10,260 bases of DNA from IMG/VR virus record IMGVR_UViG_2667527849_000007, one strand, 5' to 3'. The position numbers were made by a program, and so were the translations under genes. This DNA is from a virus. Lineage: Duplodnaviria > Heunggongvirae > Uroviricota > Caudoviricetes. Below are positions 726 through 10,260 of the stretch, piece after piece; the stretch's first letter is position 1; each line of letters starts with the position of its first letter. Below the pieces are notes generated by a model, which was not told the DNA's origin, made no database searches, and saw nothing but the letters and a program-made list of their open reading frames with translations.

Positions 726-936
726 AAACGGTTTGCGGGAAAAGGAGAGTTAAGTAGAATTGCAGCGGGTGCTTGAGGCTATCTGTCTCAGGCATGAACA
801 CCAAAAGGCAGATAGAGAAAAGCCCCAGTTAACATTACGCGTCCGGCAAGACGCTTAACATTAATCTGAGGCTCAATCTATGAACGGCAAATCTAGGTTA
901 GCCTCTTACGTGCCGAAAGGCAAGGAGAAGCAGGCT

Positions 937-1092
937 ATGAAGCAGCAAAAGGCGATGTTAATCGCCCTGATCGTCATCTGTTTAACCGTCATAGTGACGG
1001 CACTGGTAACGAGGAAAGACCTCTGCGAGGTACGAATTCGAACCGGCCAGACGGAGGTCGCTGTCTTCACAGCTTACGAACCTGAGGAGTAA
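937..1092 (+). CDS. hok: Hok/Gef-family type I toxin (small membrane-depolarising peptide), 51 aa
   Basis: Translation MKQQKAMLIALIVICLTVIVTALVTRKDLCEVRIRTGQTEVAVFTAYEPEE has the Hok/Gef hallmarks: hydrophobic N-terminal helix, TRK.LCE.R motif, EVA.F motif, ~50 aa. AAGGAG at 922-927 lies 9 nt upstream of the ATG. The ORF track extends the same frame to an ATG at 880 (70 aa), so the start is ambiguous. Confidence 0.75.
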   Translation: MKQQKAMLIALIVICLTVIVTALVTRKDLCEVRIRTGQTEVAVFTAYEPEE

Positions 1093-1669: not shown

Positions 1670-2728
1670 GTGCGGGTATTACTTCGACCTGTTCTGGTAC
1701 CGGAACTCGGTCTGGTTATCGTTAAGCCAGGCCGTGAATCAATGTCAGCATTCCATAACGGCAGAATACTGGTGGAGCCGGAACCAAAAAGCATGCGTAA
1801 TCTGCCGTCCGGGGTCGTTCCTGCCGCTCGCCAGCCGCTGGTGGAAGACAAAACATTGCTGCCGTTTTTCAGTAACGCACGGGTGATTCGTGCTGCTGGT
1901 GGTGCTGGTGCATTGTCTGACTGGCTGTTGCGCCATATTAAATCCTGCCAGTGGCCACACGGCGATTATCATCACAGCGAAACCGTCATTCACCGTTATG
2001 GTACCGGCGCAATGGTGTTGTGCTGGCACTGCGACAACCAGCTGCGTGACCAGACATCCGAATCACTCGAGCAACTTGCTCATCAAAACCTGTCAGCATG
2101 GATGATTGACGTCATCGGTCACGCAATAAGCGGTACGCAGGAGCGTGAATTATCTCTGGCTGAATTATCCTGGTGGGCGGTCCGCAATCAGGTGGCGGAC
2201 GCGCTACCGGAAGCGGTATTACGTCGTTCGCTGGGGTTGCGTGCGGAAAAAATTCGCTCTGTGTACAGTGAAAGCGACATCATACCGGGAGAGCAGACAG
2301 CCACCAGCATACTGAAGCAGCGCACAAAAAATATTGCGTTACTGCCTCACGTCCACCAGCAACAGAACCCACCACAGGAAAAGACGGTGGTCAGCATTGC
2401 CGTTGATCCGGAGTCACCGGCTCAGTATCTCCAGCGCCAGAAATCACAACGGGAAGAGATGCCTGTATACACGCGCTGGGTAAAAACGCAGAAATGCATG
2501 ACGTGTGGCAATCAGGCAGATGATCCGCATCACATCATTGGTCATGGACTGGGAGGGATGGGAACAAAGGCTGATGATTTGTTTGTTATTCCGTTATGCC
2601 GTAAATGCCGTAACGAACTACATGCCGGAGTAAAAGATTTTGAAGAGAAACACGGCAGTCAGCTGTTGTTGCTGATTCGTTTTTTAATGCACGCGAGAAA
2701 TTCGGGTGTTCTGAAGTGGAAAGCATAA
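1670..2728 (+). CDS. DUF968-family phage protein (YdfU-like) with a C-terminal CxxC...HH...CxxC...H motif
   Basis: 352-aa ORF. C-terminus CMTCGNQADDPHHIIGHGLGG...CRKCRNELH resembles an HNH/zinc-ribbon signature. Gene order (this gene, rusA, Q) matches the ydfU-quuQ neighbourhood of Qin-type prophages as I recall it. Start uncertain: GTG 1670 sits only 4 nt after GGAGG; an in-frame ATG at 1742 is an alternative. Confidence 0.7.
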   Translation: MRVLLRPVLVPELGLVIVKPGRESMSAFHNGRILVEPEPKSMRNLPSGVVPAARQPLVEDKTLLPFFSNARVIRAAGGAGALSDWLLRHIKSCQWPHGDYHHSETVIHRYGTGAMVLCWHCDNQLRDQTSESLEQLAHQNLSAWMIDVIGHAISGTQERELSLAELSWWAVRNQVADALPEAVLRRSLGLRAEKIRSVYSESDIIPGEQTATSILKQRTKNIALLPHVHQQQNPPQEKTVVSIAVDPESPAQYLQRQKSQREEMPVYTRWVKTQKCMTCGNQADDPHHIIGHGLGGMGTKADDLFVIPLCRKCRNELHAGVKDFEEKHGSQLLLLIRFLMHARNSGVLKWKA

Positions 2729-3109
2729 ATGACCGAGCGCATAGAATTTGTTTTACCTTACCCGCCGACGGTGAACACTTACTGGCGTCGTCGTGGCAGC
2801 ACATATTTTGTATCAAAAGCCGGGGAGCGTTATCGCCGGGCAGTGGCGCTTATTGTTCGCCAGCAGCGGCTGAAATTAAGCCTGTCCGGAAGGTTGGCAA
2901 TAAAAATTATTGCAGAACCACCGGATAAGCGCCGCCGTGACCTGGACAATATTCTGAAAGCGCCGCTGGATGCGCTGACGCATGCGGGGTTGCTAATGGA
3001 CGATGAGCAGTTTGATGAAATCAATATCGTTCGTGCTCAGCCAGTATCTGGTGGACGTCTGGGGGTGAAGATTTATCCCATAATGCTTGAAGGGCAGGTC
3101 AAAAAATGA
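2729..3109 (+). CDS. rusA: RusA-family Holliday junction resolvase (crossover junction endodeoxyribonuclease)
   Basis: 126 aa. LPYPPTVNTYWRRRG N-terminus and acidic PDKRRRDLDN and LMDDEQ motifs fit the RusA family. ATG abuts the DUF968 stop; stop overlaps the Q start. Confidence 0.85.
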   Translation: MTERIEFVLPYPPTVNTYWRRRGSTYFVSKAGERYRRAVALIVRQQRLKLSLSGRLAIKIIAEPPDKRRRDLDNILKAPLDALTHAGLLMDDEQFDEINIVRAQPVSGGRLGVKIYPIMLEGQVKK

Positions 3110-3497
3110 AACTGGAAGATTTACCGAAATACTACTCCCCAAAATCCCCCGGCCTGACTGATGCATCGGCCTCAACGTCGAAAGATGCGCTGAGTATCAC
3201 TGATGTGATGGCCGCGCAGGGCATGACACAGAATCGGGCTGAGATGGGGGTTTCTGCGTTCCTTGGGAAAATGGGCATTAGTATGAATGACAGAGAGCGG
3301 GCAACAGAATTGCTGACAGAATATGCACTCAGTCGGTGTGATCGCGTGGCGGCGTTAAGAAAACTCCCGGCAGAAATAAAACCGGCAGTGATGCGTATTA
3401 TGGCTTCGTATGCGTTTGAAGATTATGCCCGTAGCGCGGCGAGCAAAAAACAGTGCCCCTGCTGTCACGGAAAAAAATTTATTGAAAGCGAGGTTTT
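3106..3497 (+). pseudogene. Q-like antiterminator, 5' fragment (codons 1-129) truncated by IS2
   Basis: First 129 codons give the same protein as the intact Q at 7002-7823. Sequence diverges after 3497 into IS2 antisense. The track ORF 3106..3870 is a Q/IS2-antisense chimera. Confidence 0.75.
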
Positions 3498-3498
3498 A

Positions 3499-3915
3499 AT
3501 CACAGCAGAACTCGAACCCGTCAGAGCACCATCGCTGATTGCTTTCTTTCACGGCCACTCTGCCTGTATGTGCCCGTTTCGATGGCGGTACAGCAGGTTT
3601 TCGCTCAAGCAACAGCGCATTCTGGCGCATGATCCGGTAAACACGTTTGGCATTGATCGCAGGCATACCATCAAGTTCTGCCTGTCTGCGAAGCAGCGCC
3701 CATACCCGACGATAACCATACGTGGGCAGCTCTCCGATAACATGGTGTATACGGAGAAGCACATCCGTATCATCAGTGTGACGACTGCGGCGGCCATCCA
3801 TCCAGTCATCGGTTCGTCTGAGAATGACGTGCAACTGCGCACGCGACACCCGGAGACAACGGCTGACTAAGCTTACTCCCCATCCCCGGGCAATAAGGGC
3901 GCGTGCGCTATCCAC
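3499..3915 (-). pseudogene. insD: IS2 InsD (transposase OrfB), N-terminal 139 codons only
   Basis: Minus-strand translation [41 protein letters not shown]...[11 protein letters not shown] matches the IS2 InsD N-terminus. Full InsD is about 300 aa; the reading frame ends at the IS2/Q junction. Confidence 0.8.
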
Positions 3916-4238
3916 TTTTTTGCCCGTCCATATTCAACGGCTTCTTTGAGGAGTTCATTTTCCATCGTTTTCTTGCCGAGCAGGCGCTGGAGTTCTTTAA
4001 TCTGCTTCATGGCGGCAGCAAGTTCAGAGGCAGGAACAACCTGTTCTCCGGCGGCGACAGCAGTAAGACTTCCTTCCTGGTATTGCTTACGCCAGAGAAA
4101 TAACTGGCTGGCTGCTACACCATGTTGCCGGGCAACGAGGGAGACCGTCATCCCCGGTTCAAAGCTCTGCTGAACAATTGCGATCTTTTCCTGTGTGGTA
4201 CGCCGTCTGCGTTTCTCCGGCCCTAAGACATCAATCAT
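3873..4238 (-). CDS. insC: IS2 InsC (transposase OrfA), 121 aa
   Basis: Minus-strand translation [56 protein letters not shown]... matches IS2 InsC from memory. The track ORF 3873..4283 carries a 15-codon upstream extension. Confidence 0.85.
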
Positions 4239-4464
4239 CTGTACTCCAATGACTAGTCTAAAAACTAGTATTAAGACTATCACTTATTTAAGTGATACTG
4301 GTTGTCTGGAGATTCAGGGGGCCAGTCTACGGACATTTTCTGCCTGTGGACCAGGAAAGTGCACGGGTGCTTTCCACTCCCATGAAGCCCGGCAATCCGC
4401 GCAGATACAGTAATAAACGAACTGACAGCAGTAAGATGGAGCGTTTCTTTTGAACAACCAGACA

Positions 4465-4707
4465 ATGACTTTTACCTCTGAACAATTGCGTAAACACGCG
4501 CAGGAAATGCTGCGTCATGCTGAACAACTCGAAAAAACGGGCATAACAAAAGACGCTATCCGTAAAGATATGGTACCCGCGCTTCGGGAACTGATGCAGG
4601 CGAAGCATCGCGCACAGAAAGCAGTAGATGAGCTGGTGGACTGTGTGGCAGAGCTGGAAACCAGAGTCGGAAAGTTTGAAAAACTGGTGCAGGAGGTGCT
4701 GCGCTGA
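4465..4707 (+). CDS. hypothetical small phage protein, 80 aa (85 aa if the TTG at 4450 is used)
   Basis: ORF track 4450..4707. Likely start is ATG 4465 (MTFTSEQLRKHAQEM...). N-terminus resembles the ORFs at 137-304 and 301-645. Stop overlaps the rusA' start (TGATG). Confidence 0.5.
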   Translation: MTFTSEQLRKHAQEMLRHAEQLEKTGITKDAIRKDMVPALRELMQAKHRAQKAVDELVDCVAELETRVGKFEKLVQEVLR

Positions 4708-5081
4708 TGCGCCATGAGTTTATTTTACCTTATCCGCCGACGGTGAATACTTACTGGCGACGTCGTGACAACACATATTTTGTATCAAAAGCCGGTGAGC
4801 GTTATCGCCGGGATGTGGCGCTTATTGTCCGTCAGCAGCGACTGAAATTAAGCCTGTCCGGAAGACTGGCGATAAAGATTATTGCAGAGCCACCGGATAA
4901 GCGCCGTCGTGACCTGGACAATATCCTGAAAGCACCACTGGATGCACTGACACATGCGGGAGTGTTAATGGACGATGAGCAGTTTGATGAAATCAATATC
5001 GTTCGTGCTCAGCCAGTATCTGGTGGACGTCTGGGGGTGAAGATTTACCCCATAATGCATGAAGAGCAGGTCAAAAAATGA
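4707..5081 (+). CDS. rusA: RusA-family Holliday junction resolvase, divergent second copy
   Basis: 124 aa, roughly 90% identical to the 2729-3109 copy, with a different N-terminus (MRHEFILPY vs MTERIEFVLPY) and scattered substitutions at both nucleotide and protein level. Confidence 0.8.
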   Translation: MRHEFILPYPPTVNTYWRRRDNTYFVSKAGERYRRDVALIVRQQRLKLSLSGRLAIKIIAEPPDKRRRDLDNILKAPLDALTHAGVLMDDEQFDEINIVRAQPVSGGRLGVKIYPIMHEEQVKK

Positions 5082-5823
5082 AACTGGAAGATTTACCGAA
5101 ATACTACTCCCCAAAATCCCCTTGCCTGACCGATGCATCGGCCTCAACGTCAAAAGATGCGCTGAGTATCACTGATGTGATGGCCGCGCAGGGCATGACA
5201 CAGAATCGGGCTGAGATGGGGTTTTCTGCGTTCCTGGGGAAAATGGGCATCAGTATGAATGACAGGGCGCGGGCAACAGAATTACTGGCAGATTATGCAC
5301 TCAGTCGGTGCGATCGTGTGGCGGCGTTGAGAAAACTTCCGGCAGAAATAAAACCGGTAGTGATGCGCATTATGGCTTCGTACGCTTTTGAGGATTATGC
5401 CCGCAGCGCAGCGAGTAAAAAGCAGTGCCCTTGTTGCTATGGGGAAAAATTTATTGAAAGCGTAGTTTTTACAAACAAGGTCCAGTATCCGGATGGTAAG
5501 CCGCCGGTATGGGCAAAGTGTACGAAAGGTGTGTATCCGTCTTACTGGGAAGAATGGAAAAAAGTCAGGGAGGTGGTAAAAGTTGCCTGTCCGGAGTGTG
5601 GCGGAAAGGGTGAGGTTTCCACCGCCTGTAAGGATTGCCGTGGGCGTGGTGTCGCCATTCATCGTGAAGAGTCGGTAAAACGTGGTATGCCTGTTATCAG
5701 AGACTGCCAGCGTTGTGGTGGTCGTGGCTATGAAAGACTACCATCAACGGAGGCATTTAATGCTATATGCGAGGTGACAAACCAGATAACACGCGCGTCA
5801 TGGGAAAAAACAGTTAAGAAATT
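5078..5823 (+). pseudogene. Q-like antiterminator, mosaic copy truncated at codon ~248 by fusion to the middle of a DUF968 gene
   Basis: The 5' half differs from the other Q copies (SPCLTD, ARATELLADYA, CYGEK); the 3' half from about 5481 is identical to copy 3. At about 5821-5825 the sequence switches to DUF968 sequence (matching 1929 onward), giving the track ORF 5078..6001 an out-of-frame 59-aa tail. The last ~25 Q codons are missing. Confidence 0.6.
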
Positions 5824-6624
5824 ATGCGCCATATTAAATCCTGCCAGTGGCCACACGGCGATTATCATCACAGCGAAACCGTCATTCACCGTTATGGTAC
5901 CGGCGCAATGGTGTTGTGCTGGCACTGCGACAACCAGCTGCGTGACCAGACATCCGAATCACTCGAGCAACTTGCTCATCAAAACCTGTCAGCATGGATG
6001 ATTGACGTCATCGGTCACGCAATAAGCGGTACGCAGGAGCGTGAATTATCTCTGGCTGAATTATCCTGGTGGGCGGTCCGCAATCAGGTGGCGGACGCGC
6101 TACCGGAAGCGGTATTACGTCGTTCGCTGGGGTTGCGTGCGGAAAAAATTCGCTCTGTGTACAGTGAAAGCGACATCATACCGGGAGAGCAGACAGCCAC
6201 CAGCATACTGAAGCAGCGCACAAAAAATATTGCGTTACTGCCTCACGTCCACCAGCAACAGAACCCACCACAGGAAAAGACGGTGGTCAGCATTGCCGTT
6301 GATCCGGAGTCACCGGCTCAGTATCTCCAGCGCCAGAAATCACAACGGGAAGAGATGCCTGTATACACGCGCTGGGTAAAAACGCAGAAATGCATGACGT
6401 GTGGCAATCAGGCAGATGATCCGCATCACATCATTGGTCATGGACTGGGAGGGATGGGAACAAAGGCTGATGATTTGTTTGTTATTCCGTTATGCCGTAA
6501 ATGCCGTAACGAACTACATGCCGGAGTAAAAGATTTTGAAGAGAAACACGGCAGTCAGCTGTTGTTGCTGATTCGTTTTTTAATGCACGCGAGAAATTCG
6601 GGTGTTCTGAAGTGGAAAGCATAA
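5824..6624 (+). pseudogene. DUF968 (YdfU-like) 3' fragment, C-terminal 266 codons with a junction-created ATG
   Basis: Protein identical to the C-terminal portion of the 1670-2728 product. The ATG at 5824 exists only because the junction reads ATTATGCGCC where the full copy reads CTGTTGCGCC. Retains the CxxC/HH motif region. Whether it is translated is unknown. Confidence 0.6.
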
Positions 6625-7393
6625 ATGACCGAGCGCATAGAATTTGTTTTACCTTACCCGCCGACGGTGAACACTTACTGGCGTCGTCGTGGCAGCACAT
6701 ATTTTGTATCAAAAGCCGGGGAGCGTTATCGCCGGGCAGTGGCGCTTATTGTTCGCCAGCAGCGGCTGAAATTAAGCCTGTCCGGAAGGTTGGCAATAAA
6801 AATTATTGCAGAACCACCGGATAAGCGCCGCCGTGACCTGGACAATATTCTGAAAGCGCCGCTGGATGCGCTGACGCATGCGGGGTTGCTAATGGACGAT
6901 GAGCAGTTTGATGAAATCAATATCGTTCGTGCTCAGCCAGTATCTGGTGGACGTCTGGGGGTGAAGATTTATCCCATAATGCTTGAAGGGCAGGTCAAAA
7001 AATGAAACTGGAAGATTTACCGAAATACTACTCCCCAAAATCCCCCGGCCTGACTGATGCATCGGCCTCAACGTCGAAAGATGCGCTGAGTATCACTGAT
7101 GTGATGGCCGCGCAGGGCATGACACAGAATCGGGCTGAGATGGGGGTTTCTGCGTTCCTTGGGAAAATGGGCATTAGTATGAATGACAGAGAGCGGGCAA
7201 CAGAATTGCTGACAGAATATGCACTCAGTCGGTGTGATCGCGTGGCGGCGTTAAGAAAACTCCCGGCAGAAATAAAACCGGCAGTGATGCGTATTATGGC
7301 TTCGTATGCGTTTGAAGATTATGCCCGTAGCGCGGCGAGCAAAAAACAGTGCCCCTGCTGTCACGGAAAAAAATTTATTGAAAGCGAGGTTTT
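5825..7393 (+). repeat. direct repeat copy B, partner of 1929-3497
   Basis: See copy A. Its left boundary is the Q'/DUF968 fusion junction; its right boundary is where copy A is interrupted by IS2. Confidence 0.8.
6625..7005 (+). CDS. rusA: RusA-family Holliday junction resolvase, third copy, identical in protein to 2729-3109
   Basis: Identical 126-aa translation to copy 1, and the antisense shadow ORFs are also identical, implying nucleotide identity. Confidence 0.85.
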   Translation: MTERIEFVLPYPPTVNTYWRRRGSTYFVSKAGERYRRAVALIVRQQRLKLSLSGRLAIKIIAEPPDKRRRDLDNILKAPLDALTHAGLLMDDEQFDEINIVRAQPVSGGRLGVKIYPIMLEGQVKK

Positions 7394-7823
7394 TACAAAC
7401 AAGATCCAGTATCCGGATGGTAAGCCGCCGGTATGGGCAAAGTGTACGAAAGGTGTGTATCCGTCTTACTGGGAAGAATGGAAAAAAGTCAGGGAGGTGG
7501 TAAAAGTTGCCTGTCCGGAGTGTGGCGGAAAGGGTGAGGTTTCCACCGCCTGTAAGGATTGCCGTGGGCGTGGTGTCGCCATTCATCGTGAAGAGTCGGT
7601 AAAACGTGGTATGCCTGTTATCAGAGACTGCCAGCGTTGTGGTGGTCGTGGCTATGAAAGACTACCATCAACGGAGGCATTTAATGCTATATGCGAGGTG
7701 ACAAACCAGATAACACGCGCGTCATGGGAAAAAACAGTTAAGAAATTTTATGATGCGCTGGTGACCCGGTTTGATATTGAAGAAGCATGGGCTGAGCGGC
7801 AGTTAAAAAAGGTAACTAGGTAA
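7002..7823 (+). CDS. Q-like late-gene antiterminator (QuuQ/YdfT-like), the only intact copy, 273 aa
   Basis: N-terminus MKLEDLPKYYSPKSP... Carries CPCCHGKK plus three CxxCxGxG zinc-finger-like repeats (CPECGGKG, CKDCRGRG, CQRCGGRG). Lies directly upstream of a pR'-like promoter and tR'-like terminator and downstream of rusA, as expected for lambdoid Q. Family assignment is from memory. Confidence 0.7.
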   Translation: MKLEDLPKYYSPKSPGLTDASASTSKDALSITDVMAAQGMTQNRAEMGVSAFLGKMGISMNDRERATELLTEYALSRCDRVAALRKLPAEIKPAVMRIMASYAFEDYARSAASKKQCPCCHGKKFIESEVFTNKIQYPDGKPPVWAKCTKGVYPSYWEEWKKVREVVKVACPECGGKGEVSTACKDCRGRGVAIHREESVKRGMPVIRDCQRCGGRGYERLPSTEAFNAICEVTNQITRASWEKTVKKFYDALVTRFDIEEAWAERQLKKVTR

Positions 7824-7828
7824 CAAGG

Positions 7829-7856
7829 TTGATTTTTCCGGAATCTGTGGTAAATT
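7829..7856 (+). promoter_or_regulatory. candidate late promoter pR' (and qut region) immediately after Q
   Basis: TTGATT (7829-7834), 16-bp spacer, extended -10 TGgTAAATT (7848-7856). TAAATT is the -10 I recall for lambda pR'. Begins 6 bp after the Q stop. Confidence 0.5.
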
Positions 7857-7905
7857 CGTCATAACGATGGGCGTTTTATGCCTGACGTTAGAAGAGTTTC
7901 TACAA

Positions 7906-7927
7906 CCCGCCGCCGAGCGGGTTTTTT
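7906..7927 (+). terminator. tR'-like intrinsic terminator in the late leader
   Basis: Hairpin CCCGC-CGCCGA-GCGGG followed by TTTTTT, about 50 nt downstream of the predicted -10. Expected to be read through only by Q-modified RNA polymerase. Confidence 0.55.
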
Positions 7928-8047
7928 ATGACTGAAATCGCGTCAGTACAGTAAACGCGCTGGTGGCGGTGAATACCTGTCTTTCAGCTTGCTGGCTTTT
8001 TCGACAAGAGTTATTGGTGTGTCACGTTAACCGGAAAAGGAAAAGAC

Positions 8048-8245
8048 ATGCTAAAACAGCAGGATATGACAGAAACCGCCAGAGTGGTGTTTAATGAATT
8101 AAGCGTTACCGAACCGGCGACAGTCGGGGAGATAGCGCAGAATACTTACCTTTCACGCGAACGCTGCCAGTTAATACTGACCCAGCTGGTTATGGCGGGT
8201 CTGGCAGACTATCAGTTCGGTTGTTACAGACGCCTTCCGCAGTGA
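8048..8245 (+). CDS. small putative helix-turn-helix protein, 65 aa
   Basis: ORF track 8048..8245. AAGGA RBS 8-9 nt upstream of the ATG. Segment ATVGEIAQNTYLSRERCQLILTQL has an HTH-like pattern. The stop lies inside a terminator hairpin. Confidence 0.5.
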   Translation: MLKQQDMTETARVVFNELSVTEPATVGEIAQNTYLSRERCQLILTQLVMAGLADYQFGCYRRLPQ

Positions 8246-8255
8246 AGGCTTTTTT
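8232..8255 (+). terminator. intrinsic terminator overlapping the stop of the small HTH ORF
   Basis: Perfect 6-bp stem GCCTTC / GAAGGC with loop CGCAGT, followed by TTTTTT (8250-8255). Confidence 0.5.
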
Positions 8256-8272
8256 ATTTGTGGTAAATGGGC

Positions 8273-8303
8273 GGCTGGTGGGTGTTAGGGGCACCCACCA
8301 GCC
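8273..8303 (+). promoter_or_regulatory. perfect 12-bp inverted repeat (GGCTGGTGGGTG - 7 nt - CACCCACCAGCC) in the methyltransferase leader
   Basis: Arms and spacer read directly from the sequence. No U-tract follows, so it is not a canonical terminator. Could be an RNA stability or processing element or a protein-binding site. Confidence 0.35.
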
Positions 8304-8395
8304 ATCTGCTCATGCGTTGGGTTCACAAGCAAACCTCAGGCCCACTGCTTTGCGCAAAAGCAGAATGAGCCTATCAGAGACAGGCTTAATGATCC

Positions 8396-9454
8396 ATGCT
8401 TAATACTGTAAAAATATCCAGTTGTGAGTTAATCAACGCCGACTGCCTGGAATTTATCCGGTCGTTACCCGAAAATTCTGTTGACCTGATAGTCACGGAC
8501 CCGCCGTACTTTAAAGTGAAGCCTGAGGGCTGGGATAACCAGTGGAAGGGCGACGATGATTACCTGAAGTGGCTGGACCAGTGTCTGGCGCAGTTCTGGC
8601 GGGTGCTGAAACCTGCCGGAAGTCTTTACCTGTTCTGTGGTCATCGCCTGGCATCTGATATCGAAATCATGATGCGTGAACGCTTCAGTGTGCTGAACCA
8701 TATTATCTGGGCGAAGCCGTCCGGACGCTGGAACGGATGCAACAAGGAAAGCCTGCGGGCGTATTTCCCCGCCACAGAGCGCATTCTGTTCGCGGAACAT
8801 TATCAGGGGCCGTATCGTCCGAAAGATGCCGGGTATGCGGCGAAGGGCAGTGCACTGAAACAGCATGTGATGGCCCCGCTGATTTCTTACTTTCGTGATG
8901 CGCGAGCTGCCCTGGGGATAACGGCAAAACAGATTGCAGATGCCACAGGAAAGAAAAACATGGTGTCGCACTGGTTCAGTGCCGGTCAGTGGCAGTTGCC
9001 GAATGAGAGCGATTATCTGAAATTACAGGCGCTGTTTGCCCGGGTGGCAGAAGAGAAGCATCGGCGTGGTGAACTGGAAAAGCTCCACCACCAGCTGGTG
9101 GATACGTATACCTCACTGAACCGGCAGTATGCGGAGCTGCTGAGTGAATATAAACATCTGCGGCGGTATTTTGGCGTGACGGTGCAGGTGCCGTATACCG
9201 ATGTGTGGACGCATAAACCGGTGCAGTTCTATCCCGGGAAACATCCGTGCGAAAAACCGGCAGAAATGCTGCAGCAGATAATCAGCGCTAGCAGTCGTCC
9301 GGGTGACCTGATTGCAGATTTTTTCATGGGGTTGGGTTCGACAGTGAAAGCGGCACTGGCGCTCGGGCGTCGTGCAATTGGCGTTGAGCTGGAGACTGAA
9401 CGTTTTGAGCAGACGGTTCGGGAAGTACAGGATTTAGTCAGCCAGAACGGATGA
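8396..9454 (+). CDS. DNA methyltransferase, beta-class amino-methyltransferase (probable N6-adenine; DPPY motif), orphan
   Basis: 352 aa. Motif IV DPPY near the N-terminus (LIVTDPPYF) and an FxGxG AdoMet motif near the C-terminus (DFFMGLGST), the circular permutation typical of beta-class N6A/N4C methyltransferases. No restriction endonuclease gene adjacent. No obvious SD before ATG 8396. Confidence 0.85.
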   Translation: MLNTVKISSCELINADCLEFIRSLPENSVDLIVTDPPYFKVKPEGWDNQWKGDDDYLKWLDQCLAQFWRVLKPAGSLYLFCGHRLASDIEIMMRERFSVLNHIIWAKPSGRWNGCNKESLRAYFPATERILFAEHYQGPYRPKDAGYAAKGSALKQHVMAPLISYFRDARAALGITAKQIADATGKKNMVSHWFSAGQWQLPNESDYLKLQALFARVAEEKHRRGELEKLHHQLVDTYTSLNRQYAELLSEYKHLRRYFGVTVQVPYTDVWTHKPVQFYPGKHPCEKPAEMLQQIISASSRPGDLIADFFMGLGSTVKAALALGRRAIGVELETERFEQTVREVQDLVSQNG

Positions 9455-9494
9455 TATTGAAGAATTAATTACGCGTCGTTATTATGCGGCTCCC

Positions 9495-9570
9495 GGCCCT
9501 TTAGCTCAGTGGTGAGAGCGAGCGACTCATAATCGCCAGGTCGCTGGTTCAAATCCAGCAAGGGCCACCA
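9495..9570 (+). tRNA. ileZ: tRNA with CAT anticodon, most likely tRNA-Ile2 (lysidine-modified, reads AUA); tRNA-Met not excluded
   Basis: Hand-folded cloverleaf: acceptor GGCCCTT / AAGGGCC, D-stem GCTC/GAGC, anticodon loop CTCATAA, T-loop TTCAAAT, encoded CCA. Closely resembles E. coli ileX-type tRNA. Symbol by analogy with the ileZ-argN-argO cluster of Stx phages, from memory. Confidence 0.8.
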
Positions 9571-9577
9571 TCACATA

Positions 9578-9654
9578 CCGCCATTAGCTCATCAGGAAAG
9601 AGCGCCAGCCTTCGAAGCTGGCTGCGCGGGGTTCAAGTCCCCGATGGCGGTCCA
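9578..9654 (+). tRNA. argN: tRNA-Arg, anticodon TCG (reads CGA)
   Basis: Acceptor CCGCCAT / ATGGCGG, anticodon stem CCAGC/GCTGG, loop CTTCGAA, T-loop TTCAAGT, encoded CCA. Anticodon read by hand; symbol by analogy only. Confidence 0.75.
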
Positions 9655-9667
9655 TTATCTGCATCAT

Positions 9668-9744
9668 GCGTTGTTAGCTCAGCCGGACAGAGCAATTGCC
9701 TTCTAAGCAATCGGTCACTGGTTCGAATCCAGTACAACGCGCCA
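9668..9744 (+). tRNA. argO: tRNA-Arg, anticodon TCT (reads AGA/AGG)
   Basis: Acceptor GCGTTGT / ACAACGC, anticodon stem ATTGC/GCAAT, loop CTTCTAA, T-loop TTCGAAT, encoded CCA. Symbol by analogy only. Confidence 0.8.
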
Positions 9745-9758
9745 CACTTATTTTCCCT

Positions 9759-9784
9759 GGCTCGCTTTTGCGGGCCTTTTTTTT
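9759..9784 (+). terminator. intrinsic terminator after the tRNA cluster
   Basis: Hairpin GGCTCGC-TTTT-GCGGGCC (one G-U pair) followed by eight T, starting 15 nt after the last tRNA. Confidence 0.6.
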
Positions 9785-10260
9785 AAATGTCTCACAATTC
9801 AGACGGTTGACAGTTGTCTGTTTTGCGGGGAGTTTGTTAAAAGAAACTGGCATGGTGAATCCCCCTGTGCGGAGGGGCAATCAGCGAGTAGGTATATGGG
9901 ATAATCGCGGATTCAGGTGCTGGTACTGAATTCACCGGGAGGCACCCGGCATCATGCAATGGCACATAGCGCCACTCTCCAGCCCTCTCCGGAGGGGCTT
10001 TTCTGTGCCGGATACATCACAGTTTCTGGAACCTTAGGTACTACAGTATCAGTCAGGGTGCTATATTTTCAGATGTGATGAAAGCCTGTCAGCAGGCAGG
10101 GCGTATCGGAAATGACCCAGTAGAGAAAACGTTGACTCAGATACCGGTGCTGAGTTACCGGGAAACCGGCATCACATGACCGCTATCCTGAGGTGTACTG
10201 GCAATAGCGGACACTACCATTTGTTCTTTTTTTAAGCAGCCATCTGATGATATTTTTCCC

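Follow-up and report, generated by a model that had tools for sequence, protein, structure and literature searches.

Hfq-crosslinked small RNAs (sRNAs) of E. coli O157 Sakai, together with Northern probes for them, were reported by Tree et al. 2014 (PMC4104026) and include EcOnc05, which has an Hfq-CRAC peak at Sakai positions 1179806-1179914 and a Northern band of ∼222 nt. EcOnc06 is a discrete Hfq-bound transcript of ∼177 nt and, like EcOnc05, comes from lysogens grown uninduced. EcOnc27/sRNA103, with Northern bands of ∼235/247 nt, and PasD1/2 are likewise Hfq-associated, Northern-confirmed sRNAs (PMC4104026, PMC7873438, PMC8550237, bioRxiv 10.64898/2026.05.13.724894), and common ancestry of PasD and STnc100 has been proposed (Zhu, Shabalina and Storz 2026, bioRxiv 10.64898/2026.05.13.724894). 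In EDL933 the STnc100 family is transcribed and numbers 11 copies, one of which (STnc100_4) is Northern-positive, and some of these copies have ribosome-footprint ratios >1 (PMC5331693). Effects of sRNA103 on fimZ and espA have been reported (PMC12711010, PMC7873438), one STnc100 copy lying 75 nt downstream of stx2 has been found in vesicles (PMC12370729), and variants in the stx2-linked copy have been flagged as predictors of clinical outcome (PMC12711010). The “convergent sRNA dyad” of the prophage moron region has also been published (PMC4104026, PMC7873438). In literature searches on EcOnc05, EcOnc06 and sRNA103, we came across no work on the function of the EcOnc05 type.

Here we describe the right-hand end of a 10,260-nt stretch of viral (Caudoviricetes) DNA, referred to throughout as the window. 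A first-pass annotation had marked positions 9785-10260 as lacking a convincing open reading frame (ORF) and had left three options for them, namely a structured leader, a small RNA, or a cargo gene starting past 10260. We consider it very likely that the stretch is a small-RNA cassette of the moron region of an E. coli/Shigella lambdoid prophage, situated between the Q/pR' module and the esterase/lysis genes. The small-RNA option is borne out by a full-length match to the STnc100 model and by identity to the EcOnc05 probe, and the cargo option holds in part. Two sRNA-like units, c1 and c2, are followed by the end of an IS600 element; the IS600 end (10189-10260) and c2 had both been overlooked.

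The stretch lies downstream of three tRNA genes with anticodons CAT, TCG and TCT (9495-9744, + strand), an ileZ-argN-argO cluster in which the CAT gene is annotated as ileZ in RefSeq relatives. A terminator-like hairpin, GGCTCGC-TTTT-GCGGGCC followed by T8 (9759-9784, + strand), closes the cluster; it is absent from the first-pass annotation and is also present 3' of argO in the Stx2 phage Stx2_481, directly before the stx2 cassette. A promoter-like TTGAAG-17-TATTAT (9457-9485, + strand) lies directly before the tRNA cluster, in the gap that follows the methylase stop codon, and could allow the tRNAs to be expressed independently of pR'. Overall, the interval 9400-10260 contains five terminator-like sites, against 0.6 ± 0.7 in shuffled sequences. 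Both GC-rich hairpins proposed previously do exist; the second, with its T tract, is where it had been placed (stem 9981-9999, tract 10000-10006), whereas the first, placed at 9852-9867, has its stem ∼10 nt further right at 9862-9866/9873-9877.

The description of the stretch as free of genes was confirmed when all ORFs of at least 20 aa in 9745-10260 were considered with their upstream sequences. The longest are two of 53 aa (9917-10078, GTG start, and 9768-9929, TTG start), one of 42 aa on the minus strand (9837-9965) and one of 34 aa (10075-10179, GTG start) that lies on c2; as had been stated, none of them has a Shine-Dalgarno sequence at a usable distance. Pfam searches of the ORFs in this interval gave no matches, and the single PHROG match was that of the 34-aa ORF to phrog_23557 (function unknown, E 2e-19). 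A search of the region for a short conserved ORF, which the first-pass annotation had regarded as evidence against its own reading, found none. Two further signals were set aside: a minus-strand promoter-like site at 10092-10065 is accompanied by neither a terminator on that strand nor homology support, and we make no claim for it, while sigma-54 motifs near TGGCAT and TGGCAC, checked by eye, have the wrong spacing.

The first unit, c1 (9791-10006, + strand, start approximate), matches the Rfam STnc100 model RF02076 at 9821-10010 over all of its 206 positions (1-206) with 123.6 bits (E 2e-27; gathering score 47). It consists of a conserved box CTCACAATTCAG (9791-9802), the hexamer TTGACA (9807-9812), an RNA core and a terminator. 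Once reverse-complemented, the Northern probe for EcOnc05 matches window positions 9879-9913 exactly, the EcOnc06 probe differs from the window by one base, and the Sakai Hfq-CRAC peak projects onto about 9882-9990. Compared with EcOnc05 in Sakai prophage Sp4, c1 is near-identical, with a few substitutions and one 1-nt deletion; two allele-specific changes reduce its STnc100 score from about 137 to 123.6 bits. The location also fits the family, with Q (7002-7823), a methylase gene and the tRNAs upstream, and with esterase and holin genes on the 3' side in chromosomes that are identical to the window across the IS junction. By sequence, c1 is the counterpart of the published, experimentally detected sRNA EcOnc05, and is itself already known; only c2, for which we found no published name, is mildly new.

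On a practical level, a known sRNA gene occupies a seemingly empty stretch in which some pipelines place spurious antisense “hypothetical proteins”. Such genes, or pseudogenes, are annotated antisense to STnc100 or PasD copies as PWR57_RS09580, ECs_1960 and E2348C_RS28255, and calls of this kind fall at 9837-9965 (-) in the window and at 5441-5566, 372-890 and 2301-2699 in the compared loci L001, L019 and L004, respectively. They lie over verified sRNAs and are probably spurious.

The conserved RNA core of c1 (9850-9957, + strand) consists of a closing helix (9850-9857/9950-9957) that encloses three hairpins (9862-9866/9873-9877, 9909-9916/9926-9933 and 9935-9939/9945-9949), with a variable single-stranded segment in its centre (about 9878-9908). 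A variable 3' linker (9958-9980) ending in the CU-rich CUCUCC leads to the Rho-independent terminator (stem 9981-9999, U tract 10000-10006), the 5' arm of which carries a 1-nt deletion relative to Sakai and O121. We aligned 15 family copies, comprising the window, five Sakai prophages, the Stx2_481 copy, four copies from three other phages, c2 and a third copy (c3) from locus L010, and PasD1/2. These have five helices with 29 pairs in common, and 95.8% of the cells are paired, compared with 43-52% when the partners are slid. Compensatory double changes occur in 11 of the 29 pairs, against 3.2 ± 1.3 in shuffled alignments, none of which reached 11 in 500 attempts, and against 1-3 in the slid controls. 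A C-to-U change private to the window at 9952 converts a G-C pair of the closing helix to G-U and keeps the pairing. The minimum free energy of 9850-10006 is not unusual relative to shuffled sequences (z = -0.25); we therefore dropped thermodynamic stability as evidence and base the structure on homology and covariation.

The two variable segments reassort independently of each other. In an alignment of 9821-10010 with 14 homologues, the central segment of the window also occurs in Sp10, Sp17 and 733R4_b, and its 3' segment also occurs in the stx1-linked copy, phi296 and PhiR5_1. This distribution indicates modular recombination among prophage sRNA genes and fits a conserved scaffold that would carry exchangeable pairing regions.

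Where c1 transcription would begin is suggested by two lines of comparison. The candidate promoter at 9814-9843 (+ strand), with a -35 element TTGTCT (9814-9819), an 18-nt spacer and an extended -10 element TGtTAAAAG (9835-9843), aligns to the PasD promoter TTGACT-18-TAAAAA; the PasD 5' end determined by RNA-seq (PMC8550237 Table S6) aligns to window position 9850, which would then be the 5' end of c1 and predicts an RNA of 157 nt. The candidate -10 hexamer (TAAAAG) is weak, lacking the final T, and a generic promoter consensus scan did not flag it. The Northern bands of EcOnc05 (∼222 nt) and EcOnc27 are 50-70 nt longer than this prediction and suggest instead that the RNA begins around 9790-9800, 3' of a TTAAAT at 9783-9788; both starts may be used. 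The conserved block begins at CTCACAATTCAG whether it follows tRNAs, stx2B or c2, and after stx1B it begins with one substitution (ATCTCAATTCAG). TTGACA at 9807-9812 is conserved only in copies that also carry the CTCACAATTCAG box, and we rejected it as a -35 element in the absence of an acceptable -10 element 16-18 nt downstream.

The second unit, c2 (10049-10188, + strand), was recognised from a sub-threshold STnc100 match (10049-10237; 21.8 bits, E 0.012) that does not reach the Rfam gathering score of 47. The intact allele scores higher (30.1 bits, E 2.4e-4; L010 11654-11827) and is also below that score. Uninterrupted c2 alleles are found in E. coli O121 (L001) and in locus L010 (HE616528.1), which we take to be Shigella sonnei 53G; there c2 ends in its own terminator, GGCCCA..TGGGCC followed by T5, and precedes the third, strong STnc100 copy c3, at 161 bits. 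All helices of the family are retained in order in c2 through compensatory changes: its closing helix in the window pairs ATGTGATG (10073-10080) with CATCACAT (10170-10177), and this closing helix (AUGUGAUG/CAUCACAU) differs from GCAUGGUG/CACCAUGC by three compensatory pairs. The two known alleles are conserved from an extended -10 box onward, TGcTATATT (10059-10067, + strand), and diverge strongly upstream of it. The unit is present in 673 of 5426 complete E. coli genomes (about 12%), as two alleles. We read c2 as a probable diverged RNA paralogue that resembles STnc100 and falls outside the family by the Rfam criterion.

The last 72 nt of the window (10189-10260, minus strand) are one end of IS600, an IS3-family element. 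The end begins TGAGGTGTACTGGCAATAGCGGACAC and matches the IS in Stx2_481. The PGAP name is “IS3-like element IS600 family transposase”, and the element's transposase genes, encoded on the minus strand, are located past the window end. The full element is about 1.26 kb in locus L006, where a 3-bp target-site duplication, TCC (10186-10188 in the window), flanks both IS ends; the same TCC occurs once in the uninterrupted L010. Insertion at 10189 has thus separated c2 from its own terminator, and recognising the insertion is a gain for the annotation of the window. The left flanks of IS600 are similar in the window (10171-10188, ATCACATGACCGCTATCC) and in the Stx2_481 locus (L002 4001-4016, ATCACATACCGCCATT), following the pattern ATCACAT.ACCGC.AT. 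Other IS600 copies in the compared loci have unrelated flanks, and we rejected a target preference, the resemblance probably being a coincidence. In Stx2_481 itself (L002 4017-5280), IS600 lies inside the tRNA cluster, just past the first bases of the second tRNA, which scores 44.2 bits.

The methylase protein of the window (8396-9454) is found exactly in a set of 4.5-5.0 Mb chromosomes, HE616528.1 among them, which allowed the sequence to be followed rightward, as the first-pass annotation had proposed in order to look for stx or lysis genes. Seven of ten chromosome loci share the IS junction and match window positions 5825-10260 with one or two mismatches. Past the window they continue with IS600, the c2 terminator, c3 (152 bits), a weak antisense sRNA-like match, a gene for a 617-aa DUF1737-SASA (NanS-type) esterase, a holin gene and DUF1327. 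The extension thus yielded a holin and no stx gene, and the suggestion of a cargo gene beyond 10260 is upheld to the extent that the esterase gene starts about 1.7 kb to the right of position 10260, with IS600 and a further sRNA copy in between. Directly behind c3, we also observed a minus-strand element (L006 13371-13459 and L010 12103-12191) that has a terminator and resembles the AgvB and AsxR anti-sRNAs; it falls below the AgvB/AsxR Rfam thresholds and appears only as a weak OmrA-B match of 25.2 bits. This element may represent a diverged anti-sRNA that has acquired a new 5' region.

Two further features of the window were noted in passing. A hok/sok type I toxin-antitoxin module is indicated by an Rfam sok match at 767-942 (+ strand; 112.4 bits, gathering score 59), which overlaps a 70-aa hok-like ORF at 880-1092 in the place where RefSeq relatives have hokD annotated. 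Relative to near-identical chromosome loci, the window also contains a 1.57-kb direct duplication of a DUF968-RusA-Q segment (1929-3497 and 5825-7393), with copies 2.3 kb apart; within the insert (3498-5824), positions 4709-5823 are only 94% similar to the RusA-Q region. Either the prophage is recombinant or tandem in structure here, or the duplication is an artefact of assembly.

The first-pass annotation had stated that toxin genes follow the tRNAs closely in Stx phages, which is correct for Stx2: in Stx2_481, stx2A begins 93 nt past the last tRNA. The order in this Stx2a phage (L002) is tRNAs, the same terminator hairpin, stx2A, stx2B, an STnc100 copy of 206.9 bits and, on the opposite strand, AsxR. 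Its similarity to the window breaks off just past the T tract of the terminator and is regained at TCACAATTCAG, on the far side of stx2B; stx2A and stx2B (L002 5533-6773) lie between these two break points. In Sakai Sp15, an STnc100 copy lies 79 nt downstream of stx1B. In the window, only 7 nt (9785-9791) separate the terminator T tract from the start of the conserved sRNA unit, and the canonical stx site is therefore unoccupied. The locus does not have the arrangement of a stx-converting toxin locus, in which stxAB is bordered on one side by the tRNA terminator or pR' and on the other by the STnc100 unit, and no stx-sized ORF was found in 9745-10260 or in the rightward extension of the identical chromosomes. 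The earlier opinion that the window alone does not reveal whether this site holds a toxin is thus superseded, as two adjoining landmarks, the tRNA terminator and the STnc100 unit, suffice to call the prophage stx-negative at its canonical site.

Together, these observations suggest how the cassette may work. The tRNA cluster ends at the 9759-9784 hairpin. Directly after it lies c1, which would be an autonomous gene equipped with a promoter region, a core of four helices, two single-stranded segments of variable sequence and a Rho-independent terminator. Next comes c2, read as a diverged paralogue with an extended -10 promoter of its own and cut off from its terminator by IS600 at 10189. By analogy with its relatives, c1 in a lysogen would be transcribed on its own, stop at its own terminator and bind Hfq, and it may act in trans, with the variable segments base pairing to targets and the conserved core as their scaffold. 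During lytic growth, RNA polymerase modified by Q would read from pR' through all of the terminators to the esterase and lysis genes.

Much of this layout could also be expected if the region were only a cis-acting, structured, terminator-rich leader of the late (pR') operon, insulating the esterase and lysis genes in the lysogen and giving rise to no independent RNA: it sits between Q, the tRNAs and those genes, its terminator-like hairpins are well above chance, and the c1 promoter is weak by consensus. However, near-identical orthologues (EcOnc05, EcOnc06, EcOnc27 and PasD) yield discrete Hfq-bound transcripts in uninduced lysogens, the conserved helices other than the terminator covary, which a plain insulator would not need, and the unit recurs as an independent module behind stx1B, stx2B, tRNAs or terB-like genes. 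We consequently regard a mere leader as unlikely. A version in which the untranslated leader serves a toxin or other moron gene just past 10260, as the first-pass annotation had supposed and as the position of stx2A in Stx2 phages might encourage, is highly improbable given that the stx position relative to the terminator and STnc100 landmarks is empty and that the seven chromosome loci sharing the IS junction continue with IS600, the rest of c2, the third STnc100 copy and the esterase, holin and DUF1327 genes.

That the region encodes one or more small proteins seems to us distinctly improbable too, whether from the c2 ORF (33-34 aa from 10075/10078, or 55 aa in other alleles; phrog_23557) or as a peptide from the conserved ATG at 9852. 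The phrog_23557 match, a frame that is open in both known c2 alleles and is called as a 55-aa CDS in such alleles by phage annotators, and the ribosome footprints on some EDL933 STnc100 copies (PMC5331693) are in its favour. Against this, the window allele has ATA in place of the ATG that starts the 55-aa form, whose first 21 codons are strongly divergent, with conservation beginning only at TGcTATATT; there is no Shine-Dalgarno sequence before 10075/10078; and among the RefSeq records listed PGAP has no gene at c2, which 673 E. coli genomes carry. The c2 alleles differ by six non-synonymous and two synonymous changes in the ORF, six of the eight falling in one hairpin with pairing kept. In c1-type copies the ORF from the conserved ATG ranges from 8 to 28 aa with unrelated tails, and the 1-nt terminator indel between the window and the Sakai/O121 alleles frameshifts every ORF that crosses it. 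We therefore did not adopt the PHROG-matching ORF as a protein gene, the more likely situation being an ORF called over an RNA, and keep to the reading of the stretch as an sRNA cassette.

The biological gain from that reading is small, as publications already cover the STnc100, EcOnc and PasD sRNAs as well as their place within the moron region. A more speculative extension, which we put forward only tentatively and consider doubtful, is that c2 is a functional, unnamed third STnc100-like sRNA type, or a dual-function RNA with a 33-55-aa peptide, and that tandem c1-c2-c3 arrays and the reassortment of variable segments generate new regulatory specificities. IS600, which has removed the c2 terminator here, might in that case also have a polar effect on late genes further downstream.

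Among the described systems, PasD1/2 of EPEC E2348/69 have in common with c1 the 5' core (GCAUGGUGAAUCC...), the first and third hairpins, the promoter geometry and the prophage region. Their fourth hairpin and closing helix are unlike those of c1, and the UUGUGAG seed that precedes the PasD terminator is missing from c1; c1 is accordingly not a PasD, as only the 5' core aligns while the 3' half and the seed differ. PasD falls below the STnc100 gathering score, with no match in L003, L004 and L017. The AsxR and AgvB anti-sRNAs are the convergent partners of STnc100 copies in the dyads of the moron region; they (RF02702, RF02703) have no match in 9745-10260 even at E <= 10, and in the extended locus the AgvB-like element is found only past IS600, after the third STnc100 copy. 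EcOnc27/sRNA103 and Salmonella STnc100, which is in the RF02076 seed, agree with c1 in family, helices, upstream box and map position upstream of the esterase, but their two variable segments have different sequences, and the seed regions of c1, if any, therefore probably differ from theirs. The Stx2-linked copy (EcOnc27) scores 206.9 bits and is preceded by stx2AB, compared with 123.6 bits for c1, and the effects reported for sRNA103 on fimZ and espA cannot be transferred to c1. EcOnc05 of Sakai Sp4 directly follows ileZ1-argN1-argO1 and precedes the esterase-like (NanS-type) ECs_1088, a gene order shared with c1, and has the same extent of STnc100 match as c1. The window differs from it by the C-to-U change at 9952, the 1-nt deletion in the 5' arm of the terminator and three substitutions in the upstream box, and whereas EcOnc05 is directly followed in Sp4 by the antisense EcOnc08/21, c1 in the window is followed by c2 and IS600.
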